A stretch of DNA of 64,000 nt, from IMG/VR virus record IMGVR_UViG_3300042453_001749; one strand, written 5' to 3'. The translations under genes were made by a program, and so were the position numbers. The stretch is from an uncultured virus (IMG/VR IMGVR_UViG_3300042453_001749) (Duplodnaviria > Heunggongvirae > Uroviricota > Caudoviricetes). The notes below the pieces were generated by a model. It was given only the letters and a program-made list of their open reading frames with translations. It had not been told where the DNA came from and made no database searches. This document shows positions 21,801 to 59,572 of this stretch, one piece after another (the stretch's first letter is position 1; each line of letters starts with the position of its first letter).

Positions 21801-24800
21801 AAACATGCAATTGGTACACTCAATCCACCAAACTCCAATGGTATTATAAGTATCGATCAAGCAAGTTTAATTGTTGGATCTGGTGCATATATTGGGACAT
21901 CTAATGTAAACACAACATTTGGTTTGTATCATAAGAACAATCCAATCTTTGAAAGAGAATTTGTTGGATCTTCGTCTACTGTTGTTTCTATTGCAGATGA
22001 TACAATCTTCATTCCAAATCACTATTTTGTAACTGGTGAAGAAATTGAGTATCGTCTCCCCGAAAATACGGAAGAGCAACCAATTGGAATTGCTACAACT
22101 TCTTTCGTTGGAATAGGAACTACTGATAAATTACCATCATTGGTTTATGCAATTAAGCAGGATGATAGATTTATTAAACTTGCAACATCTGCTGAAAATG
22201 CTCTTAAAGATATTCCACTTGCTATTGATATCACTAGTGTTGGTATTGGTTCCAGACATAAATTCATTGCAAAAAATCAAAATAGCAAGTCATTAGTCAC
22301 TATTGATAATGTTATCCAAGCACCTGTTTACAACACCACTATTAAAACAAGCTTAGCATCCACTGCAACAGTTTTTGTGGATACATTAGATTTTGTAGGT
22401 GTAAGTAGTTTTGCAGCTGGAAATCTTATTAAAATTAACAATGAGATAATGAAGATTCAGTCAATTTCTGGAACCTCAGTTGGGGTTCTCAGATATAGAC
22501 TTGGTACTGAATTAGAACGTCATGGTTTAGGAAGCACGATTACTAAACTAAATGGAAATTATAACATTGTTGATAATAATCTAACTTTTGACGAAACTCC
22601 ATATGGTGAACGACCACTTCCAGACCCTCAGAATGGAAATGAATTAGATTGGGTTGGAGTCACAACACACTCTACATTTAGTGGTCGTATATTTACAAGA
22701 TCTGGGGAACCACAAAGTACTAATAAAGCTTATTATGATAATATCATATATGATGACATTTCTTCTAATTTTAATGGAATTACCACAACATTTATTTTAA
22801 AATCAGATGGTCAAAATGTTACTGGAGTAACAACGAATAATCCTATTGTTTTAATTGATAATATTTTCCAAAATATTCAAAGAGTTGATACCGCTATTGA
22901 TGTTGTTGGTAACTATGATCTTGATGAAAATCATGGATCTGGGATCAGCACAATAATGTTCCTTGGTCAAACTGGGATACAAACTTCTGATATCAATGTG
23001 TCTAGAATTCCATATGGTGGTGTTTTATATGGTCTCGGATCCACCGAAGGGTTTGGATATCAACCATTAATCTCTGCTGGAGCAACAATTTCAGTTTCTA
23101 TAGCAAATACAATTACAAGCATCAGTATTGGAAATAGTGGATCTGGATACAGATCTGGAATACAAACAACAGTTAACGTATATGCTAAAAATTCATATAC
23201 GTTAGAAAACCGAGTTAGTATTGGAACAGCAGCAATAAGTCTAGGTAGGGTAGTTGGTATTGCGATAACGAATCCATCACCAACAGGAATTGCTCTTACT
23301 GAGTATCCAATTGTCGGAAATACATTTATTTCAACCTCTATTGGAGTTGGATCTACAATTTTATACATTAGCAATCCAAAATATATTTTAATTGGCGATT
23401 ATGTTAGTGTTGATGATCTAATAATCAATGCTTTAGTTGTTGGTGTTGCTTCAACTTCAATTACAATTGGAAGTGGTAGTACGATAGGTTCTTCAATTAC
23501 AACTGGAGAAACTGTTTATATTAAAAAGTTTGCATCACCAGACATTACATTTGATTCCCCAGTTGGATATGCGAGAATACCTTTGGTATATTCGCCAAGT
23601 TCTACTTCTGGAGTCGGAACTGGGGCTTATGTTGATATAATTGTAGGTCAGGGATCTAGTGTTATAGACTTTAATGTTGTTAATAGCGGATTTGGTTACA
23701 AAGAAGGAGAAATTTTAACTATTCCTAGCGGAGGATCTGTTGGAATTCCAACAGATTTAACTAAGACATTTAAAGAATTCCAAATTTTTGTCGATAAAAC
23801 ATTTAATAATGACTTTAGTGCTTGGTCTCTTGGAGAACTTCAATTAATTGATGATATTTCTGGTGCATTTAATGGTTCTAGAACTAGATTTACATTAAAA
23901 GTAGATGGAAAGACAACTTCATTTACAACTAGAAAAGGATCAAATATTGATATTCAAGCAACTTTACTAGTATTCTTAAATGATATCTTACAAGTTCCTG
24001 GAGAAGCATATTTCTTCACTGGAGGAAGTGTAATTACTTTTGCAGAACCTCCAAAAGGTGCTAATGAAGATTATTCGTCTGGTGGAGATACTTGCAAAAT
24101 TCTATACTATAGAGGAACAAAGGATGTTGATGTCGTTGATGTTGATATTCTTGAAACCATTAAAATTGGAGATGATATTACGCTTACAAGTGATGAACAA
24201 TCTCTTGAAGAAGAAGAAAGACTCGTCACTCTCGTAGATTCAACATCTAGTGTTGAAACAAATGCATATAGTGGTCCTGGAGTAACTACAGATCCTAATC
24301 TGCAAAGACCAGTTTACTGGTGCAGACAAACTGAGGATAGAATCGTTAATGGAAGAGAGGTTGGAAAGGATAGAATTCTTTATGAACCAATCATCAATCC
24401 ATTGACCAACATTATATCAAATGTTGGATTAACAACTTCATATGTTTATGTTTCAAGTGTAAAACCATTCTTTAACAGCAGTAAAGAGAACATTGGATCT
24501 CGTTTTGCAAACAAAATTGAGATCTATAATCCTGAAGAAGTATTAGCAGGAGCATCCGCTAGTATTACTGTTAGTGCTGCTGGAACTATTACAAACATTA
24601 GTATCGCAAGTAGTGGTAGAGGTTATTCATCCGCTCCTGCAGTGATCATTGGAGAACCTTATGGAATTGGAAAAACGCAAAGAGCAACTGCAACCTCAAC
24701 TATAACATCTGGTTTTGTTACAACAATAACTTTGGTAAATCCTGGTGCTGGTTATTCTTATGGTGGAGTATCTAATGTAAGCATCAGTAATACTTTCTTT

Positions 24801-25637
24801 GGGCAAGGATGGCCAACTCTCAGTACAGATACTTATAGTGCTATTAGACTTTCGACTGATATTGGAACTGGATTTAATGCTATTGCGGATATTAAGATAG
24901 ATTTGATTAATAAGAAACCACTATCACTTACAATTGTAGAATCTGGTAATAATTATCAGGTTGGGGATGTTTTAAGTGTTTCTAGAATTGGTGAAGTTGT
25001 TCTTTCAACTCCTGCACAATTCTTTGTTACTGAAATTGAAAAACCAATAGTGTTCATTGAACCACCAGATGTTAATCAAAAGGAAATAATTGAAGGTGTA
25101 ACCTTTGAGGGTGATTATGGAATCATAACTGGAGTTGCAAGTACATCAGTTGGTGTAGCATCAACTGGATTAGTTTTTGATCTTTTTATACCAGAATATT
25201 CTGTTATCAGAGATGGGAATATAAACACTGGAATTGGAACTACTGGCGTCAGTGGACTTGGAACTGGATATTACTTTGTAGTCACAAATTCAAATATAGG
25301 TTCAGGAATAACATCCTATGATTTGAGTGGTAATGTTATTGGAGTTGGAACTTCTTGCATAGACAATATCTATCAAGTTGCAGATATTCAATACGCTAAC
25401 AGAAACGCTCTGGGTGTTGGATCAACTAATCTTCTTAGAGTTACCGTTAATGTTTCAAATAATAGCATTTCTGGTTTGGGTTCAAGTGATTTCTTTGGTG
25501 AATTTAGTTGGGGTAGAATTTATACACCATCAAGGAAATCTCCAAAAGAACATTTATCAAATGGTTTCTCTGGAATAGACACATCTCCAGTTGTAAGAAG
25601 ATTGAATCCTCTAAAATATGAACTATACCGACTATAA
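12855..25637 (+). CDS. g7: Giant (4260 aa) gp7-like baseplate wedge initiator / virion structural protein
   Basis: Lies between g6 and g8; N-terminal FYSSKGTDNSFKILF and internal DNDYYQNFAYAVKS gp7-like motifs; many repeat domains. Confidence 0.75.
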   Translation: MTNTRVKISSILESQLPEFIREEFPLVKEFFTQYYESVDHQGAPVDILQNIDKYVKVEEITNLTQSTTLKNDIEYYNTTIDVESTQGFPQKYGLLQIDDEIITYGNKTDTSFIDCSRGFSGITSYRNGNTSENLIFSTSQASSHTKDSRVKNLSVVFLNEFLTKVKKQFSPGFESRTLDPNLDQNLFIKQSKDFYSSKGTDNSFKILFQALYNKNVEIIKPREYMFRPSDARYRVTRDIIIEPISGDPLSLLNKTLKQDVSDYSSKAFGSIAYVEKFTKDSRDYYYLNLDYEFNKDIDLSGSVFGNFSIHPKTSVINVDTIALGSNTLDVDSTVGFPNSGSLILTGFVYDDGELVGIFDQTVTYGSKTLTQFLNCQNVPELIKTNKYEVRIDDYAYGTNDDGEQVTVRVCGSLSDIELETNTYFYNSGDDITNIVLGQYKPGVKENDWLVNLSTTYNVQNIVEDSNIPTYRITTYDSNSISRFDNVNLNTTTGLSIGAKVISVLDSRTFMIGELSSTSFIVSTVESVTRKLSKVETFGNQTIGNFSANVQNVYFDNDDVYVASPSLPKYEERLDIRSFKISTVSGSYQDSESLTVNFHPFYTGDAIYYSGVSTSNRLNILDGVYFVKKIDDKTVRLAKSRSNIDNNIFVSITGDITNNIIELHEFKSQTLEPQNLIRKISTPINDTKTYPTESGFVGILKNGVEVLNYKSKDYVYYGNIEDVEVTSSGKNYDVINPPILTISDKVGTGASAVVSVTGSLQEIQIIDSGFDYIQEPVISISGGNGSGARVSANLLSVDHKVTFNSSGLSTSVDVINSIIGFTSYHKFRDGEKVVYETNGQTAVAGLVTNSTYFVSVQTPSSIRLYKTYNDAIAKSSNYVGIGSTYGDGNHTFRASLKKKVISSINVEDGGSGYSSNETIINTLDLNSYNDVIFSDDLLRIKNHGYESGEVVVYNPPASPIGGLSSTSYYVTKIDDNHFKLSQVSVGSTNKDFYYQTKQYINLTSKGSGIHRFNYEPITVSVSGILGFSTSPDNLYQAILQPKFRGEIVSVNLISGGTSYGSDNILNFNRQPVFQLNSGSSATLIPIISNGRITEVLVNSPGYGYNSPPDLLIDGDGNGAILTPVLSNGIISRIVVVNGGYGYSSGKTSVVVIPSGSEAQFSAKIKSWNVNIFERMYDSNQLTIDDGVIAGGLNSRYGLQYSHVYAARSLRKILKATKTGQDGDIITRPDLDADSDPNNTYHSPIIGWAYDGNPIYGPYGYLNDAGGFVTRMKSSYTLNLSPNRPGGFPRGFFVEDYSYNYPIGEDYLDEHNGRYCITPEFPNGVYAYFATISNGSPDTDGAFRNQRRPTFPYIIGNTYKSKPEIFNYQIDSNQNDIDLNTTSWSRNTKPYNLTEKNSSYDYLVNPIKLQKENAEIVSTSRGKIDSVKIISPGQDYQVGDRVIFNNANTSGNGASAKVSEISGKLVNTVSVATSTLNNVTFIPYGDQKTFIGIVTVQHNYLNNTPIIISGLSTSNTDLNGVKYIQVKSSTLVLNVGVSSAGATGIVTTFKISGDLSNANLIENDVLGIGTEKVRILKVNRPRLEVLVEREYENTVGSSHSQFSVLTEFPRKFYVSSGVNTSLNYRRNKQVFFEPEISVGVGTTSGVGISSTLLLGIIEYNTPVSIGTSSQTILIFNNPLDIDQYVSGGYIRISDSTTAVGMASTAFHTTFSKIVAVGNTSITIDFNSSTLNGIGVTAFVDKFKTSDIPTKTIFIPNHELETGTEVTYETDGSALSVSLNGYSNIQPLSDFSSLFVLKINENLIGLATSRVGLGSTGSVVGLSTLTSIDTLFFNGIGTSRNHSFVTNYNNVLTGKVTTHKATVSTASTHGLKVLDKVNIDVVSGLSTTIVVEYNSTNRRMVINPSSFASGDVNIANDTIAINNHGYYNGQKVIYTTSSTGIGGLENNGIYFVIVYDENNIRLASSYYNATSVIPTYINLTSASSGKILPINPKLTIFKNQTINFDLSSSSLSFSGLSAFDFDIFYGSGLNHIFKSDEKNSIFEVVKTGTIGFTTAVSANLQLKLTEDTPKILYYGLSPSNLLSNSPDNLGIIRDTEVFDANAIEIQNSLYSGTNTIVGVTTNTFTYNLIQSPEKQSYTNLSNSNCTYSTNSASASGPISKIEVTSGGYGYRSTPGISSVITKNGSSATLVPFGVGIGSILSIRFNDIGYDYSADKTLRPTANLPQILKVSPLSEFSRIGITSSGKYYTKAPSLVVIDGILNTQIKDVDLFYKLGDTEVSIARNTTTMRFATPSIIPINNSNAIKLTSLVYNAGVGIVTAGIAVSYSDAENFPFSVGDKILIEKSSIIPGTGTGYNSSDYEYKLFTVVSTDPNIGGENGTISYYIGDVLEGSNTPGTFDPLNSIASAVPEKFFPKFNSEIKKKEFYDREIVKTNDGFTGTVVKWDEQNSYLKVNSVDNFTVGSLITGDSSRTNAFVEEITRFKSKYSVDSSSVVKGGFAKETGFLNNDLQKLSDNDYYQNFAYAVKSTVPLDIWDDAVQSLNHTLGFKKFSDLSIESKDANSIGIATAQDGGLVEGINDIVTVIDLNCVNDFDLASEITLNINGELNSETVIFDSRILQDYSEAVSNRVLVIDDISNQFEDRPRVENYSVVEEFDLDSAISRKYLTFVQDKRFSNKKQLLFLSLLQDGVTGYINQYGRLFTDEDLGNFDYQISSENKGQLVFYPTNYAVNDYLINVVSYNLGYFDIDNYSASFDLGDTVQIKANQIEFVTGITTSIVSISSTYRASKVFVQVDSGNDLEFNELTVIHDGTNVSILEYGQITDQTSLTSPGLGTFSGSITGSNLVLQFTPNSGIAGTITTLRVSIANTSSSGVGTDKLRNSELDSRITSIASTSSPGISTVSSYVQENLEEKYNAAYFIVSVEDKTNSESEIVEVLTIDDGTNAYITEYGNLRTSSGLGTFGVGIANSITNLHFTPKSNIDVEVRVFKHAIGTLNPPNSNGIISIDQASLIVGSGAYIGTSNVNTTFGLYHKNNPIFEREFVGSSSTVVSIADDTIFIPNHYFVTGEEIEYRLPENTEEQPIGIATTSFVGIGTTDKLPSLVYAIKQDDRFIKLATSAENALKDIPLAIDITSVGIGSRHKFIAKNQNSKSLVTIDNVIQAPVYNTTIKTSLASTATVFVDTLDFVGVSSFAAGNLIKINNEIMKIQSISGTSVGVLRYRLGTELERHGLGSTITKLNGNYNIVDNNLTFDETPYGERPLPDPQNGNELDWVGVTTHSTFSGRIFTRSGEPQSTNKAYYDNIIYDDISSNFNGITTTFILKSDGQNVTGVTTNNPIVLIDNIFQNIQRVDTAIDVVGNYDLDENHGSGISTIMFLGQTGIQTSDINVSRIPYGGVLYGLGSTEGFGYQPLISAGATISVSIANTITSISIGNSGSGYRSGIQTTVNVYAKNSYTLENRVSIGTAAISLGRVVGIAITNPSPTGIALTEYPIVGNTFISTSIGVGSTILYISNPKYILIGDYVSVDDLIINALVVGVASTSITIGSGSTIGSSITTGETVYIKKFASPDITFDSPVGYARIPLVYSPSSTSGVGTGAYVDIIVGQGSSVIDFNVVNSGFGYKEGEILTIPSGGSVGIPTDLTKTFKEFQIFVDKTFNNDFSAWSLGELQLIDDISGAFNGSRTRFTLKVDGKTTSFTTRKGSNIDIQATLLVFLNDILQVPGEAYFFTGGSVITFAEPPKGANEDYSSGGDTCKILYYRGTKDVDVVDVDILETIKIGDDITLTSDEQSLEEEERLVTLVDSTSSVETNAYSGPGVTTDPNLQRPVYWCRQTEDRIVNGREVGKDRILYEPIINPLTNIISNVGLTTSYVYVSSVKPFFNSSKENIGSRFANKIEIYNPEEVLAGASASITVSAAGTITNISIASSGRGYSSAPAVIIGEPYGIGKTQRATATSTITSGFVTTITLVNPGAGYSYGGVSNVSISNTFFGQGWPTLSTDTYSAIRLSTDIGTGFNAIADIKIDLINKKPLSLTIVESGNNYQVGDVLSVSRIGEVVLSTPAQFFVTEIEKPIVFIEPPDVNQKEIIEGVTFEGDYGIITGVASTSVGVASTGLVFDLFIPEYSVIRDGNINTGIGTTGVSGLGTGYYFVVTNSNIGSGITSYDLSGNVIGVGTSCIDNIYQVADIQYANRNALGVGSTNLLRVTVNVSNNSISGLGSSDFFGEFSWGRIYTPSRKSPKEHLSNGFSGIDTSPVVRRLNPLKYELYRL

Positions 25638-27235: not shown

Positions 27236-30200
27236 ATGCCCCAAGAAACTAATCTCAACATTACTCCTTATTTTGATGATTTTTTAGCTGATAATGGTGC
27301 TAAGAAAAATAATTACTATAAAGTTTTATTCAAACCTGGATATCCAGTTCAGGCTAGAGAGTTAACTACGCTACAATCAATATTACAAAATCAAATTGAA
27401 CAATTTGGGAATCACGTTTTCAAGGAAGGTAGTGTAGTAATTCCTGGTCAATTAAATTATAATGATAATTTTACTGCTATTGAAGTTGAATCAGAATATC
27501 TTGGAATACCTTTATCTCAATATGTTGAGGATTTAGTTGGAAAGGAAATTGTTGGAGCAAGTTCAAATATTAAAGCAAAAATTTCATACGTTTTAGGTGT
27601 AGAATCTTCTCCTAGAGGTTACTACACGATTTACGTTGATTATACATCATCTGGACAGAACAATCAAGCAGTATTCCAAAATGGAGAAGTTTTAACTTTA
27701 GTTGATTCCTTTGTAAAGGGTGCCTTGGTCATTCAATCTGGTCAAGGATTTTGCTTAACTGCATCAACTAATGCAGCGTCTACTGGATCTTCAGTAGCAA
27801 TATCTGAAGGAGTGTACTTTTTAAGAGGAACTTTTGTCGATGTTCCAGATCAATTAATAGTTTTAGATCCATATTCAAATAGACCATCATATTATGTTGG
27901 TTTTGATATTGAAGAAGAAATTATAACACCAGATGATGATGAGAATTTAAACGATAATGCTCAGGGATTTACAAATTATGCAGCTCCAGGAGCAGACAGA
28001 TTTAAAATCAGAGCAGTTTTAGCAAAGAAAGATATAAATGAGCAATTGAATGAATCTTTCATCCAATTGATGGAGATTAGAGATGGTATAGTTGTATCTT
28101 TAGCTAGAAGAACTCAATATAATGCTCTTAGAGATGAACTAGCAAGAAGAACTTATGATGAATCTGGAGACTATTATGTAACTCCATTTAAAGTTTCCGT
28201 AAAAGAATCTTTAAATGATTATCAAGGAAATAATGGAGCATTTAAGCCAGGAAGAACTACATATCAAAACAATATACCTTCAGAAGATTTAGCAATTTAC
28301 CAAATTTCTCCAGGGAAAGCATACGTTAGGGGATATGAGGTAGAAACAGTTGGTGATATTATGATTGATATCCCTAAAACAAGGGATGTTAAGACTTTAG
28401 AAAATCAGTCAGTTAGTTATCTTACTGGACCTACCTATAGACTTATTAATGTTTATGGGTCTCCTCAATTAGGATTGTCCACTTCTTATACAATTTCATT
28501 AAGAGATAGTAGAGTTGGAACTTCTTCTATTTCTGCTTCTGGGAAAGAAATCGGTTTAGCTAGGGTTTATGACTTTGCATTAGAATCTGGATCTTATAGC
28601 ACATCTTTACCAGCAACTAATGAGTGGGATATATCATTGTATGATATTCAACCATATACTGAATTATTTTTAAATTCAAACCAAACTTTAACTATTCCAA
28701 CACAAATAACAGGAAAATCTAGTGGTGCAGTTGGATTTTTAAGACATGCAGTTACTGCTTCAGGAATCATAACTGCATATGATGTTAAAGGAAAATTTAT
28801 TGTAGGTGAACAATTAATTTATAACGGACAAGAGAATACTGGTATTACTACTGGTGTTACAAGTTATACATTAACTGATGTTCAATCAATTTATGGATCT
28901 GGAACTTCAGGATATTCAACGTTCTCAGGAGACATTAAGTTATCGACATTTAAAAATGTTGGTGCTGTAAGTATCACAACTTCTCATACTGGAACTATCA
29001 GCACGGTTAGATCTGCAACTTATGCATTCCCAACTAATGTAAAAGTTGGAGATATTGTTTCGTACACAACTCCAGGAGAAACTTTACCAACATATTCTAA
29101 AGTCACATCAATAACAAAAAATACTTTAGGAATTACTTCAACTGTTGGTGTTACTGGAGTTTCTACTGGAATTCTTCCAACATCAACGACAAATGTTAGT
29201 GACTTTAAGGTTTTAGGATCTCAACTTCTCCCATCTCAAGACAACACTTTATATACAAAACTACCTCAAAAGTTTGTATCTTCTGTAGACTCTTCAAAAT
29301 CCGATTTAATTATTAGAAAGCAGTACGATGCTTCAATCAGTGGTGGATTGATGAGTCCAATTGTAGCAGATGCTGATGAGACATTTTTACCATTTGATGA
29401 GGAAAGATATGTTCTAGTATTAGCAAATGGATCTGTTCAAGAATTGACTGAAGATAAGATTATTATCAGCAATGGCGGAAAACAAATTGAAATAATTGGA
29501 TTAACTAGTGGAACTTTCACTGGAAAACTAATCGCAACTCTTAGAAAGATTAATGTAAAGAGTAAAGTAAAACAAAAAAGAAGAATTAATTCAATTATCG
29601 TAGATAAGTCCACACTTCCACAGTCTGGTGTTGGTGATACAACTCTAAACGATGGACTAAATTATGGAACTGGTGGGTGGCCTTATGGAACTAGAGTTCA
29701 AGATCAAGAAATTTGTCTGTTAGTTCCTGATGTAACTCAATTGTATGGGGTTTATGAATCTTCTGGAACAGGAACACCAATTCTAACCAAACTTACATTA
29801 ACATCTTTAAATGGTCCAACAGCACAAACTGATGATCTTATAATTGGAGAGCAATTCTTAACTAAGAGTGGTGAATGCTTGGGAATTTATGTAAGTAGAG
29901 TTGATGCAAATAATATTGAAATAATTAAACTAAATGATAACTCAATAAGCACTGGAGAAGTAATTACATTCTCCGAATCTGGAATAGAAGGTTTGGTTTC
30001 AGACATTATAGTTGGCGACACTGATATTTCTACCAACTTTGACTTTTTTGCTGGTCAAGAAGATTCTATTTACAACTATTCTAAGATAATTAGAAAATTT
30101 GATGCTAGACCACCATCTAAAAAAATTAGAATTATTTTTGAAAGCGCGTACTATTCAGATAGTGACGATGGAGATATTACAACGGTTTCTTCATACGACC

Positions 30201-33200
30201 AGTTTAATTATAAAAATATTCCTTTAGCAGATTTTGAGACAAGTTGCTCAGATATCATTGATATCAGACCAAGAGTTTCTCTTTATAACTCTTCACAAGG
30301 AGCAAGATCACCATTTGAATTTTTAGGAAGAAATTATGCAAGTAGCTCAAACTCTGCAAGGAATGTTCTAGCATCTGATGAATCATTCTCTGTTACTTAT
30401 TCGTATTATCTACCAAGAATTGATAGAATTTACTTAACAAAGGATAATGGTTTTAGAGTCGTAAAGGGAGATCCTGCAGATAATCCAACTCCACCAATTC
30501 CAGTTAATGATTCTCTAGAGATTGCAAGAATTAGTCTTCCACCATATCTTGCTGATGTTGGAAAGGCAGTTATTGATATTACTGAGCATAAGAGATATAG
30601 GATGAGCGACATTGCTCGTCTTGAAGATAGAATTTTCAATCTTGAGTACTATACAACTCTGTCTCTATTAGAAACTAAGACTGAAAGTTTGTTTGTTCCT
30701 GATGAAAATGGATTAAACAGATTTAAGTCTGGATTCTTTGTGGATAATTTTACTGATGTTAGACCTCAAATTTTAACAGAACAACCAAGAAACAGTATAG
30801 ATGTTTCTTCTCAAGAATTAAGACCTTCTCACTATACAACTCAGTTAGATCTTCAACTAGGATCGAAATCAGTAATAGGTCTTGGAAGCACTAGTGATCC
30901 AAATATTGATACTAGATTTTTAGAAGATATTATTGGATCAAATATTAGAAAAACTGGTCAACTTTTAACTTTAGATTACTCGGATTCAGTATATCTAAAT
31001 CAACCTTTCGCAACTAGAGCAGTTCCAGTCACCCCATATCTAATTACATCATATAATGGTACAGTTGAATTAAATCCATCTTCAGATATTTGGATTGATA
31101 CTCAAAGACAAAAAACTCAAACTGTAAACATTGATCTATATACACCCATTAATAGTGTTCTTCAATGGACTTTGCCTGGTTACAATCCAGCAAATGGTTT
31201 AGGTCCAATAACCTGGGGATCATGGAATACAACTTGGACTGGATCTCAATCTTCATCTCGAAGAGTTAATGTTGCAAGGAATGGAATTAATCAAGTTACA
31301 ACAACTGTAACTACAACTAAGCAACAAAGAACTGGAACTAGACTTGATTTAAATCCAACAACTACAAGACAAGATTTAGGTGATCGTGTTGTAAGCAGCA
31401 CGGTTATCAACTTCATGAGATCTAGAAATATTGAATTTATTGCAAAAAGATTTAGACCATTTACTCAAGTATTCCCATATTTTGATTCAATTGAAGTTGA
31501 TGGATATTGCTTCCCTAAACTTATCCAAATTGATATGGTTTCAGGAGTCTTTAGCAGAGGAGAAACTGTTGTTGGAAATGTTGGATCTGTTGCTGCGGTT
31601 CCAAATAATAGAGTATCTCCAAGACCTCAAGCTAGATTTAGAATTTGTAATCCAAATCACAAATATGGAAGAATTACAAGACCATCTGACGTATTTACAA
31701 CAGATCCATATACAAGAACTGGATTAATTCCTAGCACATATTCATCAACATCTACTATCCTCAACGTAGATACGTTCAGCATGTCTGAAAAGGCTAATGA
31801 CCAACTATATGGACTGATTATCCCTGGGATGCGGTTGAAGGGTCTTAGAAGTGGCGCTGAGGCGGTAGTTAGAGAAGTTACTTTAGTTACAGATGAAGTA
31901 GGAACGGTCATTGGATCATTCTTAATACCAAATCCAAATGAAGCTACATCTCCAAAATTTGAAACTGGAATTAAAATTTTCAAATTAACAAGTAGTCCAA
32001 CAAATTCGTCTACTGATATTATTAGTAGTGGTCAAGAGCAATATTTTGCTCAGGGAACTTTAAATCAGGTTCAAAAAACTGTCGTTTCCACAAGAGCACC
32101 AAGATTTGATGTTGATACTGTAAGACAAAATAGAACATTAACTAGCACATCTACAAGTACAAGGGTAATTAGACCACCTGATCCACCACCACGTCGTAGT
32201 GGAGACCCATTAGCTCAATCATTTAGAGTTGATGAACCTAGTGGAGTTTTTATCACAAAGGTTGATCTATTCTTAAGAGATAAAGATCCAACTCTTCCAT
32301 TGATGGTTCAGTTAAGAACAATGGAAAATGGAGTTCCAACAACAAATGTTTATCCATTTAGTGAAGTTGTACTGGATTCTGCAAATGTAAACGTTTCTGC
32401 TGCTGGTACTGTAGCTACAACTGTAACGTTCCCATCCCCAGTTTATCTTAAGGGAGATACTGAACATGCAATTGTATTGATGTCGGACTCTGCTCAATAC
32501 TTTGCATGGTGTTCAAGACTTGGTGAAGTTGATATTACAACTCAAGGAGGACCAGAATCAAGGCAGATTATAGTTACAACACAACCAACTCTCGGATCAT
32601 TATTCAAATCTCAAAACGGATCAACATGGGATCCTAGTCAATATGAAGATTTGAAATTTACTCTGTATTCTGCTGATTTTGAAGTTAACAATCTTGGAAC
32701 TGTTAATTTCTTCAATCCAAATCTTGGAATTGGAAATGATCAAATCAGAAATCTGACGCCAGATCCTATTGAATTTATTTCAAGAACGGTTAGAGTGGGA
32801 ATCTCATCTTCAGTTACAGATAACGTATTTGCAGTTGGAAATACTATTGTTCAGGGAGGATCTGGAGCTACAGGAAAATATATTGGAATTGCAGGATCCG
32901 CTACTGGAACTTTAACAATTACAAATGCTGGAATTGGATACACACCAACTGATGGATCTTCTTACACATTTACCAATGTAGTTCTTTCTTCTGTTACTGG
33001 AAGAGGTAGAAATGCTACCGCAGACATTACTATAGGTGCATCTGGTGGTGTTAATGGAATTGCTATTGGTGCAACAATTGTTTCTGGTGGATCTGGATAT
33101 AACATTGGTGATGTATTGACTGCGACTAAAATTGGAAATCTAACTCTCGGAAGAAATGTTAGATTTACTGTCGCACAACTTGGATATAGAAATGAATTGC

Positions 33201-34717
33201 TCATTGATCAGGTTCAAGGATCATTCATCACTGGTACTGGATCAACCATTCGTTATGTTAACAATCTTGGAGTAACCACAGATCTAAATGGTATAGTTGG
33301 TGGAGGAATTACTGCAGTTTCTGTTGTTCAAGATAGTGAAGTCACTGATGGATATCACATTAAGATTAATCACAGAAATCATGGAATGCATTCCAGAACA
33401 AATGAAGTTATATTGAGTGGAATAGGAGCTGATTCAAATCCCGTAAGATTAAATGCAGATTATTCTTCTTCAGCGTCTTCAGATATTGCTTTATCAGATT
33501 CTACAATCTTCACAACATTTGAAGGAATTGGAATTGGAACCACTACCAAAGGTTATGCACTAATTGATAATGAAATCATCTCGTATACTGGTGTTAGTGG
33601 AAATACTTTAACAGGTATTACCAGAGGAATTGACGGTACTATTCCAAATACTTATGGATCTGGATCACTTGTCTACAAGTATGAAAATAATGGTGTATCT
33701 CTAAGAAGAATCAACAAAACACACATCTTAGATGATGCACAAGCAATTGATGCAATAGGTCTTGATCATTACTATCTAAAACTTGATATGAGTGGAAGAG
33801 ATGTTGGAACCGACAATGAGTTGATTGATCGTACATTAACTCAAAGTTTCCCAAGATTACATATTAACCAAACCAAATCTTCTGGTGGTGCTGCCGTTTA
33901 TGCTACACAAAACATAGCATATGAAATGGTACATCCACAAATTCAAGTGTTAAGTCTTCCTGGTACTGAAGTTAGTGCTAGTGTTAGAACAGTTTCTGGA
34001 ACAAGCATTAGCAATAGTTCAGAAATTTCTTTCTTAGATAATGGATTTGAATCGGTTTCATTAAATCAAGATAACTACCTTTCTTCACCAAGAATAGTTT
34101 GTTCAAAGGTTAATGAAGATACTAAACTTGATACTTTACCTGGAAATAAGTCTTTTGAACTTTCGGTTTCTCTTGGATCAGAAAATACAAGAATCTCTCC
34201 AGTAATTGATTTAGATAGAATTGGGTGTATTTTCACTACAAACAGAGTTAATAGTGTTGTTACTGGATTTGCTACAGACGGTAGAGTAAATACAATAATC
34301 AATGATCCCTCAGCATTTACATATGCTATTAAACCCGTTGAATTAGAACTACCAGCAACTTCAATTCGTGTAATTCTTTCAGCATATATTAACAATGAAG
34401 CTGATCTGAGAGCATTATATGCAATTGGAAATAAACCAGAAGAAACTTCTGTTTATAATCTATTCCCTGGATATGATAACTTAGATACCTCTGGATTTAT
34501 TGTAGATCCTTCTAAAAATAGTGGTCTTTCAAACAAAAAAATTCAAAAGGTTAATGAATATCAATCAGATAGTTCTAGATTACCCTTCAAGGAGTATGAA
34601 TTCTTCATCGATAATTTAACTCCATTCAGATTCTATAGTATTAAACTTATTGGTACTTCTACTAATCAGGCATATCCACCAAGAGTAAGAGATCTAAGAG
34701 TGATCGCTTTTGCATAA
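27236..34717 (+). CDS. Large virion structural protein, VrlC-like (DUF4815-like from memory)
   Basis: PYFDDF...VLFKPGYPVQARELTTLQSILQNQ; RFKSGFFVDNF; DPLAQSF. Confidence 0.85.
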   Translation: MPQETNLNITPYFDDFLADNGAKKNNYYKVLFKPGYPVQARELTTLQSILQNQIEQFGNHVFKEGSVVIPGQLNYNDNFTAIEVESEYLGIPLSQYVEDLVGKEIVGASSNIKAKISYVLGVESSPRGYYTIYVDYTSSGQNNQAVFQNGEVLTLVDSFVKGALVIQSGQGFCLTASTNAASTGSSVAISEGVYFLRGTFVDVPDQLIVLDPYSNRPSYYVGFDIEEEIITPDDDENLNDNAQGFTNYAAPGADRFKIRAVLAKKDINEQLNESFIQLMEIRDGIVVSLARRTQYNALRDELARRTYDESGDYYVTPFKVSVKESLNDYQGNNGAFKPGRTTYQNNIPSEDLAIYQISPGKAYVRGYEVETVGDIMIDIPKTRDVKTLENQSVSYLTGPTYRLINVYGSPQLGLSTSYTISLRDSRVGTSSISASGKEIGLARVYDFALESGSYSTSLPATNEWDISLYDIQPYTELFLNSNQTLTIPTQITGKSSGAVGFLRHAVTASGIITAYDVKGKFIVGEQLIYNGQENTGITTGVTSYTLTDVQSIYGSGTSGYSTFSGDIKLSTFKNVGAVSITTSHTGTISTVRSATYAFPTNVKVGDIVSYTTPGETLPTYSKVTSITKNTLGITSTVGVTGVSTGILPTSTTNVSDFKVLGSQLLPSQDNTLYTKLPQKFVSSVDSSKSDLIIRKQYDASISGGLMSPIVADADETFLPFDEERYVLVLANGSVQELTEDKIIISNGGKQIEIIGLTSGTFTGKLIATLRKINVKSKVKQKRRINSIIVDKSTLPQSGVGDTTLNDGLNYGTGGWPYGTRVQDQEICLLVPDVTQLYGVYESSGTGTPILTKLTLTSLNGPTAQTDDLIIGEQFLTKSGECLGIYVSRVDANNIEIIKLNDNSISTGEVITFSESGIEGLVSDIIVGDTDISTNFDFFAGQEDSIYNYSKIIRKFDARPPSKKIRIIFESAYYSDSDDGDITTVSSYDQFNYKNIPLADFETSCSDIIDIRPRVSLYNSSQGARSPFEFLGRNYASSSNSARNVLASDESFSVTYSYYLPRIDRIYLTKDNGFRVVKGDPADNPTPPIPVNDSLEIARISLPPYLADVGKAVIDITEHKRYRMSDIARLEDRIFNLEYYTTLSLLETKTESLFVPDENGLNRFKSGFFVDNFTDVRPQILTEQPRNSIDVSSQELRPSHYTTQLDLQLGSKSVIGLGSTSDPNIDTRFLEDIIGSNIRKTGQLLTLDYSDSVYLNQPFATRAVPVTPYLITSYNGTVELNPSSDIWIDTQRQKTQTVNIDLYTPINSVLQWTLPGYNPANGLGPITWGSWNTTWTGSQSSSRRVNVARNGINQVTTTVTTTKQQRTGTRLDLNPTTTRQDLGDRVVSSTVINFMRSRNIEFIAKRFRPFTQVFPYFDSIEVDGYCFPKLIQIDMVSGVFSRGETVVGNVGSVAAVPNNRVSPRPQARFRICNPNHKYGRITRPSDVFTTDPYTRTGLIPSTYSSTSTILNVDTFSMSEKANDQLYGLIIPGMRLKGLRSGAEAVVREVTLVTDEVGTVIGSFLIPNPNEATSPKFETGIKIFKLTSSPTNSSTDIISSGQEQYFAQGTLNQVQKTVVSTRAPRFDVDTVRQNRTLTSTSTSTRVIRPPDPPPRRSGDPLAQSFRVDEPSGVFITKVDLFLRDKDPTLPLMVQLRTMENGVPTTNVYPFSEVVLDSANVNVSAAGTVATTVTFPSPVYLKGDTEHAIVLMSDSAQYFAWCSRLGEVDITTQGGPESRQIIVTTQPTLGSLFKSQNGSTWDPSQYEDLKFTLYSADFEVNNLGTVNFFNPNLGIGNDQIRNLTPDPIEFISRTVRVGISSSVTDNVFAVGNTIVQGGSGATGKYIGIAGSATGTLTITNAGIGYTPTDGSSYTFTNVVLSSVTGRGRNATADITIGASGGVNGIAIGATIVSGGSGYNIGDVLTATKIGNLTLGRNVRFTVAQLGYRNELLIDQVQGSFITGTGSTIRYVNNLGVTTDLNGIVGGGITAVSVVQDSEVTDGYHIKINHRNHGMHSRTNEVILSGIGADSNPVRLNADYSSSASSDIALSDSTIFTTFEGIGIGTTTKGYALIDNEIISYTGVSGNTLTGITRGIDGTIPNTYGSGSLVYKYENNGVSLRRINKTHILDDAQAIDAIGLDHYYLKLDMSGRDVGTDNELIDRTLTQSFPRLHINQTKSSGGAAVYATQNIAYEMVHPQIQVLSLPGTEVSASVRTVSGTSISNSSEISFLDNGFESVSLNQDNYLSSPRIVCSKVNEDTKLDTLPGNKSFELSVSLGSENTRISPVIDLDRIGCIFTTNRVNSVVTGFATDGRVNTIINDPSAFTYAIKPVELELPATSIRVILSAYINNEADLRALYAIGNKPEETSVYNLFPGYDNLDTSGFIVDPSKNSGLSNKKIQKVNEYQSDSSRLPFKEYEFFIDNLTPFRFYSIKLIGTSTNQAYPPRVRDLRVIAFA

Positions 34718-38401: not shown

Positions 38402-38839
38402 ATGAGTAAAAAATTTGACGATTTGAATGATACTTTTAATGTTGAGGGAAGCGTTGTGCCAATTAATTCACCTGCCGAAATAGTTACTCAAGAAGAAACT
38501 CCAAAAGCTCTAAATGCTAATGATGATGTTATAAAGGATTATGAATATACAAGAGGAAATCTTTATTCAATTATAGAAAAGGGACAAGAAGCAATTAATG
38601 GTATTTTAGAGTTGGCCCAAGAAAGTGAAATGCCTAGAGCCTATGAAGTTGCAGGTCAATTGATTAAAAATGTAGCAGATGCAACTGATAAGTTGATGGA
38701 TCTGCAAAAGAAATTAAAAGATATCGATGAGACAAAATCATCGAAAGGACCAACTACTGTTAACAACTCACTTTTTGTTGGATCCACTGCTGAGCTTTCT
38801 AAATTTTTAAAAACCATGCAAAATGATACTAAAGAATAA
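38402..38839 (+). CDS. g16: Terminase small subunit gp16
   Basis: DYEYTRGNLYSIIEKGQEA...PRAYEVAGQLIK...FVGSTAEL. Confidence 0.92.
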   Translation: MSKKFDDLNDTFNVEGSVVPINSPAEIVTQEETPKALNANDDVIKDYEYTRGNLYSIIEKGQEAINGILELAQESEMPRAYEVAGQLIKNVADATDKLMDLQKKLKDIDETKSSKGPTTVNNSLFVGSTAELSKFLKTMQNDTKE

Positions 38840-38842
38840 ATA
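38835..38842 (+). promoter_or_regulatory. T4-type late promoter
   Basis: AATAAATA (tandem) upstream of ORF 38869. Confidence 0.65.
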
Positions 38843-38868
38843 AATAAAGATTCTTTTTTATTCTATAA

Positions 38869-40614
38869 ATGTCCAACAATCTGAAACCTCACAAAAATGT
38901 GGAGCAAATTGCCAAAAAACATAAAGTTGACGTTTCAGAAATTGAAAAGCAACTTGCAATGGGAATCAAAGTAGAAAAAGAACATACTAAAAGTGAATCT
39001 ACTGCTAGAACTATTGCCCTTCAGCATTTGGATGAAATTCCAGACTATTATTCTAGATTAAAAAAAGCAGAAAAAGTTTCTGAAGATCTTAGAGATTGGT
39101 TTGGTAAAGGTGGAGAAGGTGGAGTTGGTGGTGGTGGATGGGACCGATACAACACCAAAGGAGAAAGAATTGGTAAATGTGCTCGTGAACCTGGAGAACC
39201 AAAACCAAAATGCCTTTCTAAAGAAAAGGCAGCAAAAATGTCCAAAAGTGAAATTGCTTCAGCAGTAAAAAGAAAGAGAAAACAAGATCCCACAGCAGAT
39301 AGATCTGGAAAAGGAGGAAGACCCATCATGGTTTCAAATAAAATAAAGGAACAATCAGAGGAAAGTAGATATTGCACAAAATGTAAAAAAGTAGAAAAAA
39401 GATCCGAATGCTCTTACGGTCCAGAAATGTGGGATAAAATGACTGTTAAAAATTTTGCTAAGGAAGCAAAGGATCATGAATATTCAATGGCTCGCTCTGA
39501 GTTATCAGCAATAATTAACTCATCAAAAAGACTTAAGAAAAAAGTTTCTAAGGGTGAAGGTGAAATTGAGGCGTGGGTGCAATCAAAAATTACCAGAGCT
39601 GCTGACTATTTAAATTCAGCTGCAGATTATGTTGATAGTGGGGAAATGAAGAAAGAATCTGTTACTATTGAAACTGCTGATGGAAAATCTTTTGCCGAAG
39701 TAATTGATATAATTGGTCCAAATCAAATGGAACCTGTAGTCAATGAAAAATGTTGGGTTGGATATAAGCAAGTTGGCATGAAGAAAAAGGGAAATAAAAC
39801 CGTTCCAAATTGTGTTCCAGAGTCTAAAAGTATCGTTTCAAAAATGTTAGAACAGATTGAAGGAGAAGAACTTCTTCAATCGTTTGAGGAAGAAAATAAA
39901 CCAACGAATCCTTCACTTTGGGCAAAAGCAAAGGCAGCAGCTAAAGCAAAATTTGACGTTTATCCATCAGCATATGCAAATGGGTGGGCTTCAAAATGGT
40001 ATAAATCTAAAGGTGGTGGATGGAAATCCGTAAGGGAGTCTTATGAAGAAGGTGAAGTTTGTGCATATTGTGGATGCGATCCATGCGAATGTGAAGAAGG
40101 TCAAAATTGGGATGGGGAAGAAGAACTGGAAGAATCAGTAAGAATTCCATCAAAAAATGGGCATATTATGATGGTCATAGTCATGTGGAGAGGGCAAACA
40201 TATTCATTAAAAATGTTTTTCCCATCAACAAGAATCCCATCTAAAAAAGATATTTCTACAGAGATTCAAAAAGTATATCCAGATTCAAAAGTAGTATACG
40301 CCAAAGTTTCTAATCTTGAACCTGGACAACCTTTGTTGCAAACAGGTGTTAATGAGGATTGGCAGAAAGTAAATCGCCAAGATAAAACTGATGGATTGAG
40401 TCAGAAAGCAGTTAATGCATATAGACGCGAAAATCCTGGTTCAAAATTACAGACGGCTGTAACAGAAAAAAATCCATCAGGTAAAAGAGCGAAACGCCGT
40501 TCTTCATTTTGTAGTCGTATGAAGGGAATGAAATCTAAACTCACTTCCGCAAAAACTTCTAGAGATCCAGATTCAAGAATTAACAAAGCACTCCGTCGTT
40601 GGAATTGTAATTAA
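38869..40614 (+). CDS. Modular protein made of about 9-10 short domains; candidate head-internal polyprotein
   Basis: Distinct modules joined at xxE-type linkers; late promoter; lies between g16 and g17. Confidence 0.7.
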   Translation: MSNNLKPHKNVEQIAKKHKVDVSEIEKQLAMGIKVEKEHTKSESTARTIALQHLDEIPDYYSRLKKAEKVSEDLRDWFGKGGEGGVGGGGWDRYNTKGERIGKCAREPGEPKPKCLSKEKAAKMSKSEIASAVKRKRKQDPTADRSGKGGRPIMVSNKIKEQSEESRYCTKCKKVEKRSECSYGPEMWDKMTVKNFAKEAKDHEYSMARSELSAIINSSKRLKKKVSKGEGEIEAWVQSKITRAADYLNSAADYVDSGEMKKESVTIETADGKSFAEVIDIIGPNQMEPVVNEKCWVGYKQVGMKKKGNKTVPNCVPESKSIVSKMLEQIEGEELLQSFEEENKPTNPSLWAKAKAAAKAKFDVYPSAYANGWASKWYKSKGGGWKSVRESYEEGEVCAYCGCDPCECEEGQNWDGEEELEESVRIPSKNGHIMMVIVMWRGQTYSLKMFFPSTRIPSKKDISTEIQKVYPDSKVVYAKVSNLEPGQPLLQTGVNEDWQKVNRQDKTDGLSQKAVNAYRRENPGSKLQTAVTEKNPSGKRAKRRSSFCSRMKGMKSKLTSAKTSRDPDSRINKALRRWNCN

Positions 40615-48093: not shown

Positions 48094-48744
48094 ATGAAAC
48101 TCATCACAGAAGAAATCGAACAGGTTGAAGTTCTTACAGAAAGCGTAAATGGTAAAAAAACTCTTTATATTCAAGGGGTTTTTCTCCAGAGTGAGCAAGT
48201 AAACCGCAATGGTAGACTTTACAGACTCCCAGTAATGGAAAGAGAAGTAAAGCGTTATAGCGAACAATATGTAAATAAAGGTCGTGCTCTTGGAGAACTT
48301 GGACATCCTGATGGTCCAACTGTAAATTTAGATCGTGTCTCTCATAAAATTGTTGATCTTCATAGAGAAGGAAATAATTTTATTGGTAAAGCACAAATTT
48401 TATCTACACCAATGGGTAAAATTGCAGAATCACTTCTGAAAGAAGGTGTTACTCTCGGAGTCTCTTCTCGTGGGATTGGTTCACTAAAACAAACTCGTGA
48501 AGGGTATAGTGAAGTTGGTGAAGATTTTATGCTTGCAACTGCGGCAGATATTGTTGCTGATCCTTCTGCACCTGATGCTTTTGTTCAAGGAATTATGGAA
48601 GGAAAAGAATGGGTATGGGATGGTGGAATTTTAAGAGAGAAGGCGGCATCAAGAACATATAGACGTATCAATACGTTAGTTGATGAAAAAAGACTTGAAG
48701 AGCATAAATTAAACTTATTCAATAATTTTCTTGCAAATTTGTAA
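48094..48744 (+). CDS. g21: Prohead protease gp21
   Basis: ALGELGHP...LGVSSRGIGS...DIVADPSAPDA. Confidence 0.96.
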   Translation: MKLITEEIEQVEVLTESVNGKKTLYIQGVFLQSEQVNRNGRLYRLPVMEREVKRYSEQYVNKGRALGELGHPDGPTVNLDRVSHKIVDLHREGNNFIGKAQILSTPMGKIAESLLKEGVTLGVSSRGIGSLKQTREGYSEVGEDFMLATAADIVADPSAPDAFVQGIMEGKEWVWDGGILREKAASRTYRRINTLVDEKRLEEHKLNLFNNFLANL

Positions 48745-50040: not shown

Positions 50041-51486
50041 ATGTTCCATTCAGAACAATTGCAGGAAAAGTGGGCACCTCTCCTCAACTATGAGGGTCTT
50101 GATCCAATCAAAGATTCGCACAGAAGAGCGGTAACCGCAGTCCTGCTAGAAAACCAAGAAAGATTTTTAAGAGAGCAAACAGCTTTCGATCAAGGATCCA
50201 TGAGCTATCTCATGGAAACCCCAACCTCAAACACTGGCTCATATTCAGCAAGTGGAGCTGGTGCTAATGCTAGTGGTTTTAGTGCTGGTGCAACTGCAGC
50301 AGGTCCTGTTGCTGGTTTCGACCCCGTTCTGATCTCTCTGATCAGACGTGCAATGCCTAACCTTGTTGCATATGACCTCGCTGGCGTTCAGCCAATGAAT
50401 GGTCCTACTGGACTCATCTTTGCGATGCGTTCACGTTACGGCAACCAGAACGGCACTGAAGCATTCTACAATGAAGTAGATACTGCTTATTCAGGTCAGA
50501 ACGAAGGTTTCGACCTCACCAATGGTTTCACTGATGTTAACGCTGGTATGGGTACTACTGCCCAATCTGGTAGCAACCCATCAGTTCTCAACCCTGTAGG
50601 AACAGCTTCATCTGTTGGTTACAGAGTTGGTCAGGGCATGAGAACTGACGACGCTGAGGATCTTGGATCAACGGGCGACAACTTCAACGAAATGAGCTTC
50701 TCAATCGAGAAGATCAGCGTCACTGCGAAGTCACGCGCTCTGAAAGCCGAGTACTCACTTGAGCTTGCTCAAGACCTTAAGGCAATCCACGGTCTGAATG
50801 CTGAAGCGGAATTAGCAAATATTCTCTCAACTGAGATTCTTGCTGAAATCAACCGCGAAGTTATCAGAACCATCTACAAGGTTGCTGAGCAAGGTGCTGT
50901 TCAGAATACTGCAACTGCTGGTGTATTCGACCTCGACGTTGACTCCAACGGTCGTTGGTCAGTTGAGAAGTTCAAGGGTCTTCTTTTCCAAATCGAGCGT
51001 GATGCTAACGCAATCGCACAAAGAACTCGTAGAGGAAAGGGCAACATCATCATGTGCTCTGCTGACGTTGCTTCAGCATTGACCATGGCTGGTGTTCTCG
51101 ACTACACCCCTGCACTCAACGCTAACCTCAACGTTGATGATACTGGCAATACTTTTGCTGGTACTCTCATGGGTAAGTATCGTGTTTATATCGATCCTTA
51201 TGCTGCTAACCTCACCGCAGGTAATGCATCTCCTGGTAACCAGTACTATGTTGTTGGTTATAAGGGTTCTTCACCTTACGATGCAGGTCTCTTCTATTGC
51301 CCATATGTACCCCTCCAGATGGTACGTGCAGTTGGAGAGAACACCTTCCAGCCTAAGATCGGCTTTAAGACCCGTTATGGTCTCGTTGCAAACCCATTTG
51401 CAGAAGGAACCAATCAGGGTCTCGGTGCTCTCCACATCAATAGCAACCGCTACTACAGAAGAGTTGCTGTTAAGAACCTCATGTGA
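50041..51486 (+). CDS. g23: Major capsid protein gp23
   Basis: GVQPMNGPTGLIFAMR...AKSRALKAEYSLELAQDLKAIHG...FQPKIGFKTRYG. Confidence 0.98.
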   Translation: MFHSEQLQEKWAPLLNYEGLDPIKDSHRRAVTAVLLENQERFLREQTAFDQGSMSYLMETPTSNTGSYSASGAGANASGFSAGATAAGPVAGFDPVLISLIRRAMPNLVAYDLAGVQPMNGPTGLIFAMRSRYGNQNGTEAFYNEVDTAYSGQNEGFDLTNGFTDVNAGMGTTAQSGSNPSVLNPVGTASSVGYRVGQGMRTDDAEDLGSTGDNFNEMSFSIEKISVTAKSRALKAEYSLELAQDLKAIHGLNAEAELANILSTEILAEINREVIRTIYKVAEQGAVQNTATAGVFDLDVDSNGRWSVEKFKGLLFQIERDANAIAQRTRRGKGNIIMCSADVASALTMAGVLDYTPALNANLNVDDTGNTFAGTLMGKYRVYIDPYAANLTAGNASPGNQYYVVGYKGSSPYDAGLFYCPYVPLQMVRAVGENTFQPKIGFKTRYGLVANPFAEGTNQGLGALHINSNRYYRRVAVKNLM

Positions 51487-59382: not shown

Positions 59383-59572
59383 GAAAGAACAGAAACGAAA
59401 ACTTAAACCGCAAGCACTGCGCCAAGCGAAAGCACGTCTGGCCCAGTTCAAGAAGCGTCACATGAACCGCTCCAATGGGGCGGTTTCGTCGTATTATACG
59501 TTCATACGAAATAAAACCAATGTCTGTTCGCCACGAAATCAAATCTCAACTTGCGAAACTCCTTGCAACTGA
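59351..59572 (+). CDS. Small basic hypothetical protein (start ATG59351)
   Basis: MNTPNWQHHSKKEQKRKLKPQALRQAKARL; its tail runs through the downstream promoter. Confidence 0.55.
   Translation: MNTPNWQHHSKKEQKRKLKPQALRQAKARLAQFKKRHMNRSNGAVSSYYTFIRNKTNVCSPRNQISTCETPCN
59439..59497 (+). promoter_or_regulatory. Palindrome-type early promoter 7 (degenerate)
   Basis: TGGCCCA-gttcaagaag-CGTCACA; TATTAT at 59492, same 29-nt gap. Confidence 0.55.

Follow-up and report, generated by a model that had tools for sequence, protein, structure and literature searches.

The window analysed here, a 64,000-nucleotide stretch of DNA from an uncultured virus of the Caudoviricetes (IMG/VR record IMGVR_UViG_3300042453_001749), derives from a T4-like ocean cyanophage, and its nearest named records are Prochlorococcus and Synechococcus myoviruses, for example P-TIM68 with 77% nucleotide identity over the terminase part. 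Its structural region carries ORF581 (P0001), a single open reading frame (ORF) that encodes a chain of mostly basic mini-modules and may be a head-cargo polyprotein cut by the prohead protease. The gene order is g13, g14, g15, g16 (small terminase), ORF581, g17 (large terminase), endonuclease VII, g18, g19, g20, an ORF of phrog_682, g21 (prohead protease), g22 (scaffold) and g23. The ATG of ORF581 immediately follows an in-frame stop codon, and the gene fills the slot between g16 and g17, as an earlier note made from the sequence had stated. A search of the window for a second member of the family found none besides ORF581. The features of the locus are listed below.

38402-38839: small terminase gene, g16 (phrog_445, E 1.9e-54)
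38836..38846, plus strand: late-promoter-like motif of two overlapping ATAAATA copies, overlapping the g16 stop codon and lying 23-33 nucleotides 5' of the ORF581 ATG
38869..40614, plus strand: ORF581, modular protein, a single uninterrupted frame of 581 residues
40632-42278: large terminase gene, g17

The heptamer ATAAATA occurs 14 times in the window against 28.1 copies expected by chance, on the plus strand only, and the majority of the copies lie 19-42 nucleotides 5' of ORF starts. Because of this strand restriction and this placement, it is taken as the putative late-promoter core of the window, and the pair of copies before ORF581 agrees with the late promoter that the earlier note had assigned to the gene. 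The strict T4 late promoter octamer TATAAATA was sought as well; none lies upstream of ORF581, and TATAAATG overlaps the start codon.

ORF581 has a beads-on-a-string architecture of eight modules recognised by hidden Markov models (HMMs) and two short units, mostly basic and joined by acidic linkers of low predicted confidence. Modules were defined in an alignment of 120 close relatives as conserved blocks (about 90% identity) set against variable, indel-rich stretches, and the limits used in the searches were residues 12-68 (M1), 73-158 (M2), 167-192 (M3), 202-260 (M4), 295-315 (M6), 343-387 (M7), 423-492 (M9) and 497-581 (M10). The ten units and the tripeptides between them that the earlier note had listed are all present in the ORF581 sequence as written. 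The modules, their net charges and their predicted local distance difference test (pLDDT) scores are as follows.

38902..39072, plus strand: M1, residues 12-68, DUF5661, four-helix unit, net charge 0, pLDDT about 90
39076-39084 and 39343-39351, plus strand: VSE before M2 and IKE at the end of M2
39085..39351, plus strand: M2, residues 73-161, Gly-rich basic unit with the Cys pair C104/C115, net charge +11
39367..39444, plus strand: M3, residues 167-192, CxxC...C mini-unit, net charge +3
39472..39648, plus strand: M4, residues 202-260, helical hairpin, net charge -1
39649..39747, plus strand: M5, residues 261-293, acidic variable unit, pLDDT below 50, terminal VNE at 39739-39747
39748..39822, plus strand: M6, residues 294-318, CW..GYK...PNC beta-hairpin with a Cys pair, net charge +5, terminal VPE at 39814-39822
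39823..39891, plus strand: acidic linker, residues 319-341, with terminal FEE
39892..40038, plus strand: M7, residues 342-390, PSAYANGW unit, net charge +7, terminal VRE at 40030-40038
40039..40134, plus strand: acidic linker and Cys-rich M8 (CxxCxCxxCxC), residues 391-422, net charge -13, terminal LEE at 40126-40134
40135..40356, plus strand: M9, residues 423-496, alpha/beta unit, net charge +5, pLDDT 92-95, terminal VNE at 40348-40356
40357..40611, plus strand: M10, residues 497-581, DUF6321, helical, net charge +16, conserved Cys548 and Cys580

The positive charges of M2, M3, M6, M7, M9 and M10 and the linker charges of -2 to -13 fit the statement that the units are mostly basic and the linkers acidic, and the whole protein has an isoelectric point of 9.3. 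Several modules have Cys pairs, and the linkers are acidic and disordered. Among the 120 close relatives, IKE at the end of M2 is kept in 99% and VRE at the end of M7 in 93%, and the position aligned to FEE is [ILV]xE in 95%; the residues that follow M6 across relatives are Val (95%), Pro (77%) and Glu (51%). M5 is missing from 115 of the 120 close relatives and M8 is present in about a third of them, and S-SCSM1 ORF29 has a unit similar to M5 and also M8.

Pfam recognises only the two ends of ORF581, namely DUF5661 (PF18905; 62.9 bits, gathering cut-off 27, residues 12-68, E 3.7e-17) and DUF6321 (PF19846; 55.0 bits, gathering cut-off 28.5, residues 504-578, E 1.3e-14); M7 is matched by Pfam DUF5872 in relatives. 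The same scan found no peptidase, enzymatic or polyvalent-protein hallmark domain in ORF581. The phrog_727 profile covers residues 15-580 at profile positions 68-430 of 450 (E 2.2e-58), which places ORF581 in this family, and many partial matches to short PHROG families cover single pieces of it; all 16 of the 16 PHROG matches are labelled 'unknown function'.

The AlphaFold2 model of ORF581 (68-row alignment) is likewise a string of beads, with confident modules, a predicted TM-score (pTM) of 0.25 and pLDDT below 50 in residues 68-89, 137-163, 194-200, 261-293, 389-398 and 402-428. A Foldseek search of the whole model against the PDB gave 0 matches at E<=0.001, and the best VIA-align matches were generic helical hairpins on residues 193-260, a stretch that takes in M4 (Z 6.4; none at Z>=8). 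A separate model of M9 and M10 (mean pLDDT 82.1) matched best the epsilon subunit of B. subtilis RNA polymerase (Z 5.1, 54 residues, root mean square deviation 2.4), followed by T7 Gp2 and phi29 p6 at Z 4.3, all inside the stated noise of the tool, and assignment of a function to ORF581 or to M9 and M10 from fold matches was rejected at these scores. Searches of BFVD and the ESM Atlas returned family members only, those of the ESM Atlas being clusters of the same family. A predicted complex of scaffold gp22 with M10 (residues 497-581) scored 0.00, a result that says nothing about binding either way.

The family is very large. ORF581 matches more than 7,800 proteins of similar length and 7,200 shorter ones, and an exhaustive search gave 10,047 cluster representatives at E<=0.001; tblastn with ORF581 hit 509 phage records, none covering 80% of the query. 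The tblastn hit in S-SM2 (92095-93924) lies within the T4-GC119 entry of that phage (91801-93927), so that ORF581 belongs to T4-GC119, which is found in 15 of 16 cyanophage genomes with lengths of 276-2985 nucleotides, usually in the g16-g17 gap and at other places in P-SSM4, P-SSM7 and S-SSM7 (Sullivan et al. 2010, PMC3037559). The g16-g17 gap is known as a hypervariable insertion hot-spot, according to the available part of the same paper (PMC3037559).

The modules are shuffled between phages, as the earlier note had proposed in calling them modular and swappable. When module HMMs were run on 383 collected relatives, the full order of the window was found in 109, M2-M7-M10 in 94, and dozens of other orders, including permutations, in the rest, for example M4-M2-M6-M7-M10, M6-M4-M9-M10 and M7-M2. 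M10 is the near-universal C-terminal unit, with 350 hits in the 383 proteins and only 10 distinct cases in which at least 10 residues follow it. It also occurs as a stand-alone, very basic gene of 84-105 residues in the three podoviruses examined (of Prochlorococcus and Pelagibacter), at L005:4959-5377 (P-SCSP1g), L006:4938-5222 and L007:4899-5216; in P-SCSP1g it lies between the major capsid and tail tubular genes and is followed by a second poly-basic ORF of 58 residues. In long metagenomic relatives, a Zeta-toxin-like kinase (P0276, P0304), glucosaminidase (P0303), HicA (P0324) or cytidylyltransferase-like (P0359) domain is fused to the same mini-modules and to the C-terminal DUF6321.

The joints between modules carry a positioned motif. 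Of the tripeptides that the earlier note had read as protease-like xxE joints, seven of ten (VSE, IKE, VNE, VPE, VRE, LEE and VNE) fit [ILV]xE, and AKE, KKE and FEE do not; three more [ILV]xE fall within modules, at residues 22, 54 and 531. Simple over-representation of [ILV]xE in ORF581 was tried as a signature and rejected (10 against 8.4±2.6 in 2000 shuffles, P=0.32). The motif is enriched in scaffold gp22 (28 against 15.0±3.1) and gp21 (11 against 5.3±1.9) of the window, and in T4 the scaffold and the prohead protease are themselves substrates of the protease. Placement was examined for [ILVM]xE (hxE, where h is I, L, V or M) at 545 module starts in 151 representatives of clusters at 50% identity. 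A motif with its Glu at position -1 or -2 of the module start is found at 241 of the 545 starts, against 42.7±6.2 and a maximum of 62 in 2000 shuffles of each 12-residue flank. By offset, 139 motifs lie at -1 and 103 at -2, with 4-41 at positions -12 to -3 and 0-3 inside the module, and a mirror-image peak is seen at module ends, where hxE stands at +2 or +3 in 167 of 462. The density of hxE per 100 residues is 0.52 within modules and 3.21 outside, that is, six-fold rarer inside. The motif precedes most starts of M9 (64/70) and M7 (53/61) and an intermediate share of those of M2 (43/74), M6 (31/65) and M10 (42/116), and 19 of 47 M3 starts have it at -6; none of the three stand-alone podovirus M10 genes has an hxE leader. 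At M9 the residue after the motif (P1') is Ala or Ser in 88%, and the motif is kept whatever the upstream neighbour (M1 2/2, M3 2/3, M4 4/4, M6 7/7, M7 12/14, other 37/40).

The module limits were chosen with the Glu sites of the query known, which counts against these figures, and to offset this a break-point test free of module limits was run, using the points at which phmmer local matches of the query to 149 diverse relatives begin and end. The break-points cluster near residues 70, 160, 199, 262, 291, 319, 338, 391, 418 and 495. Of the starts of matched stretches, 44% lie within a few residues of a query hxE, where random sites capture 14±8% (P=0.0006) and the remaining Glu residues 25±9% (P=0.018). 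Of the ends, 51% do so, against 15% and 21%, respectively (P<=0.0002). Placement of hxE at the joints is well beyond chance at the family level. A further reservation is that flanks are inherited with modules and the joint counts are not independent events; what carries the argument is that five or more unrelated modules are bracketed by one and the same motif. Microhomology at the joints as a driver of shuffling was set aside because a degenerate three-residue motif gives little DNA identity.

Relatives of ORF581 are found in virions. In S-SM1 virions, T4-GC119 was detected with a peptide count of 13, compared with 119 for gp23, 22 for gp22 and 8 for gp21 (PMC3037559 Table S8, which gives peptide counts only, and File S1); S-PM2 lacks a T4-GC119 gene (PMC3037559 Table S8). 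S-CREM2 ORF137, which module HMMs resolve into M9 and M10, was detected with 4 peptides and 4.1% coverage, a peptide count equal to that of the prohead protease (PMC10665884 Table 3). S-SCSM1 ORF29 is annotated as a 'virion protein' from mass spectrometry (MS), and the S-SCSM1 supplement lists it as hypothetical only. Detection in these three phages comes from independent CsCl-purified preparations analysed by whole-virion MS. The predicted fragments of ORF581 would give 0-7 tryptic peptides of usable length each, and low virion peptide counts could reflect low copy number or poor tryptic yield of Lys/Arg-rich fragments.

The proposed processing enzyme and the place of the gp23 maturation site are also present in the window:

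48094..48744, plus strand: gp21-type prohead protease, proposed processing enzyme (phrog_207, E 1.8e-82)
50209..50217, plus strand: LME of gp23 (residues 57-59), positional counterpart of the maturation site in T4 gp23

The gp21 proteins of the window and of T4 share 42% identity across 192 aligned residues. T4 gp21 prefers Leu/Ile-x-Glu. The T4 gp23 site LTE/A at residue 65 (the slash marks the bond after Glu) aligns with LTE/A of S-CREM2 and IAE/Q of S-SM2, and LME/T of the window lies two columns off; by these alignments the protease and the gp23 cleavage site appear conserved with T4. Maturation of T4 gp23 removes 65 residues, according to the accessible part of PMC9958956, and gp21-related proteases cut on the C-terminal side of Glu after a short motif, as stated in the accessible part of PMC9026906.

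The N-terminus of T4 IPII and IPIII is MKTYQEFIAE/A in the T4 record, and the available text of PMC9026906 identifies their first ten residues as the capsid-targeting sequence (CTS). A ten-residue leader resembling this CTS is found in 30 of the 383 relatives, all of the short M2-M7-M10 class, where it abuts the first module (for example MKSLKSFMSE/RCWPGYK); they make up 30 of the 132 relatives in which M2 is the first recognised module. In addition, a stand-alone M9-like gene of 102-106 residues directly follows the polyprotein gene in S-SCSM1 (L001:4777-5097, MKTFKQFMSE/S), DSL-LC02 (L002:5878-6198, MKSFNQFLSE/S) and S-SRM01 (L003:6196-6504, MKSFKQFISE/S); no such gene with a leader was found in the window. 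T4-type targeting and cleavage logic, as read from these sequences, appears to exist in the lineage and to be used by family members.

A CTS-like leader is also carried by another late gene of the window, the plus-strand ORF 61734-62288 (184 residues), which starts MKTFQEFMVE/C, identical to the T4 IPII/IPIII leader at 7 of 10 positions, and has a promoter motif at 61704-61710. It is the only Met-initiated frame of at least 40 residues in the window that fits the leader pattern, which indicates that this phage uses CTS-like leaders. Residues 33-106 match Pfam S-AdoMet_lyase (PF23780; 30.5 bits, cut-off 28), and almost all of 79 IMG/VR relatives, collected in a search partly seeded with the leader, retain the leader. 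The ORF is a candidate capsid-packaged, injected S-adenosylmethionine (SAM) lyase, an enzyme of anti-restriction type. Just upstream of it lies a plus-strand ORF of 742 residues (59475-61703) that matches phrog_459, 'peptidase' (E 5.5e-268). Two giant plus-strand ORFs upstream of the neck genes, 12855-25637 (4260 residues) and 27236-34717 (2493 residues), are presumably baseplate or fibre-type structural proteins.

The modular anatomy, the shuffling, the position-specific joint motif, the virion association of relatives, the leaders in some of them and the conserved protease and gp23 site lead to a reading, held with about even confidence, in which ORF581, expressed late, is a polyprotein of head cargo whose mini-modules, about ten in number, fold independently and are cut apart by the prohead protease. 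The late promoter of ORF581, its beads-on-a-string model and the missing hxE leader of the stand-alone podovirus M10 genes also count in favour of this reading. ORF581 would be built into the prohead core, where the activated gp21-type protease would cut after Glu in the [ILVM]-x-E motifs found on either side of most modules. The candidate cut sites follow residues 72, 161, 293, 318, 390, 422 and 496, and cleavage there would release products of roughly 3-15 kDa. Basic products would stay with the packaged DNA or leave with it on ejection, and acidic linker pieces would exit, as scaffold fragments do; the products may condense DNA or act as injected effectors. Packaging into the prohead and cutting had been proposed in the earlier note, and the virions of three cyanophages are in line with packaging while those of Syn9 are not.

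A more tentative and rather doubtful extension is that a single late gene, endlessly reshuffled, serves T4-like cyanophages as a cargo cassette decoded by the protease, in which any mini-protein can be spliced between hxE joints, the inserts in relatives including a toxin-like kinase, HicA or a wall hydrolase. Cargo would enter the prohead with the chain and be freed by the head protease, supplying tailored DNA-bound or injected effectors. DUF6321 may then serve universally, at the C-terminus, for retention or DNA binding and, in leaderless forms such as ORF581, the N-terminal DUF5661 may be a cleavable targeting domain. Such a cassette, in a family of more than 10,000 clusters at 50% identity, would rank among the commonest effector-delivery devices in the surface ocean.

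Several observations weigh against packaging and cleavage of ORF581. The [ILV]xE count of ORF581 is that expected by chance, its joints AKE, KKE and FEE lie outside the motif, and hxE is absent or rare before M1 (0/29), M3 (6/47) and M4 (2/83) across the family, so that the expectation of module boundaries at xxE sites in homologues holds above chance overall, in the module counts and break-points alike, and fails for these three modules. M1 contains LDE and M10 contains VTE, an hxE motif that 97% of close relatives retain, and an unselective protease would cut there too. ORF581 starts MSNNLKPHKNVE, which is no CTS-like leader, and 0 of 159 relatives with M1 first have one; this only weakens the case, because the T4 leader is itself restricted to IPII and IPIII and is not conserved in other core proteins, according to the accessible part of PMC9958956. 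The virion signals are weak, as with the 4 peptides of S-CREM2; Syn9 encodes a T4-GC119 member yet gave zero virion peptides (PMC3037559 Table S8), and the literature searched holds no record of a cleavage product, an N-terminus after Glu or a gel size for the family. The chance-level count, the missing leader and the conserved hxE inside M1 and M10 also speak for the main rival, which is nevertheless rather unlikely, that ORF581 stays uncleaved and works as a multi-domain protein of the virion or in association with DNA, for example a flexible poly-basic DNA binder in or on the head, and that the motifs at module edges are parts of the modules (strand starts, helix caps) beside Glu-rich linkers. 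All eight modules stand in unchanged order in the 109 relatives at 55-80% identity, and flanks travel with their modules, so that conservation alone would be expected. This rival has more difficulty with the finding that the same pattern of variable I/L/V/M, free middle residue and near-invariant Glu edges at least five unrelated modules on both sides and that hxE is six-fold depleted within modules; a T4-like CTS ending in hxE before the first module of relatives is hard to explain without processing.

If ORF581 is processed, another peptidase might be responsible, either a zincin-type enzyme as proposed for polyvalent proteins or a host protease, acting before or after delivery. Autoprocessing of polyvalent proteins by an embedded metallopeptidase is proposed in the available part of Iyer et al. 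2017 (PMC5512222), and an HExxH stretch is found in the long relatives P0276 and P0303. The metallopeptidase matches in P0303, P0351 and P0367 fall below Pfam thresholds (DUF6782 at 20.8 bits with a cut-off of 27; Peptidase_M78 at 13.8-15.6 bits), ORF581 itself has no peptidase domain, and the joint motif, which recurs at the gp23 site and at the end of the CTS-like leaders, is of the T4 gp21 type; this makes another peptidase the least likely of the explanations considered. It is also very unlikely, if slightly less so, that ORF581 is a DNA-packaging or replication accessory that is no head component and sticks to DNA or particles as a contaminant of proteomes. Its place between two terminase genes, its strong basicity, the low peptide counts with none in Syn9, and the listing of apparent non-structural enzymes in the same virion proteomes would suit such a role. 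The g16-g17 gap, by contrast, is an insertion hot-spot and not a functional operon slot in the available text of PMC3037559, family members lie elsewhere in P-SSM4, P-SSM7 and S-SSM7, relatives carry CTS-like leaders, and detection was repeated in three independent CsCl-purified preparations.

The polyprotein reading places ORF581 closest to the T4 internal proteins IPII and IPIII, and also IPI and Alt. On that reading, the family shares with these proteins late expression, basic character and a seemingly non-essential role as head cargo of a T4-type phage, together with a cleavage motif of hydrophobic-x-Glu and a homologous protease, and some relatives as well as ORF 61734-62288 of the window start with a ten-residue leader of the T4 kind. 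Unlike them, ORF581 resembles no T4 protein in sequence (a search of the T4 genome gave nothing at E<=1), has no CTS-like leader and would release up to about ten units, whereas T4 internal proteins lose one short N-terminal leader; cleavage and injection of ORF581 are predictions. In the giant phages phiKZ, 201phi2-1 and SPN3US, which belong to another phage lineage, a gp21-related protease also cuts many head-internal proteins after Glu, sometimes at several sites each, but these cleavages mostly strip propeptides from large proteins, and the available text of PMC9026906 describes no shuffled string of mini-modules.

Polyvalent proteins, as characterised in the available part of Iyer, Burroughs, Anand, de Souza and Aravind 2017 (PMC5512222), likewise join many unrelated domains in one polypeptide, are mosaic, lie in late or virion gene neighbourhoods and are proposed to be delivered with DNA and processed into separate units. 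ORF581 agrees with their description in its number of distinct domains, which is within the range of 2 to 15 and mosaic between relatives, and in its late or virion-gene neighbourhood. It differs in that its modules are units of 20-90 residues without assigned function and without enzymatic or hallmark conflict or processing domains, although relatives carry Zeta_toxin, Glucosaminidase and HicA, and in that processing would use the prohead protease at linker motifs and not an embedded metallopeptidase. Cyanophages are mentioned 0 times in the available text of that paper (PMC5512222). The 'virion proteins' of cyanophages named T4-GC119, phrog_727 or DUF6321 are the family of ORF581 itself. The literature found on T4-GC119/DUF6321 gives a hypothetical or structural label only, with no domain dissection, joint motif or processing proposal, and searches for DUF6321, DUF5661/DUF5872, cyanophage polyproteins and CTS found no polyprotein proposal. 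The family is already known as the virion protein T4-GC119.

Polyproteins are a hallmark of RNA viruses, and tailed phages are not, to our knowledge, recognised as using them. If the polyprotein reading is true, the most abundant ocean myoviruses would carry, in one hypervariable gene, a swappable set of capsid-delivered mini-proteins, which would explain the hot-spot nature of the g16-g17 region, give DUFs 5661, 5872 and 6321 a testable role and link the T4 internal-protein system to the polyvalent-protein concept.

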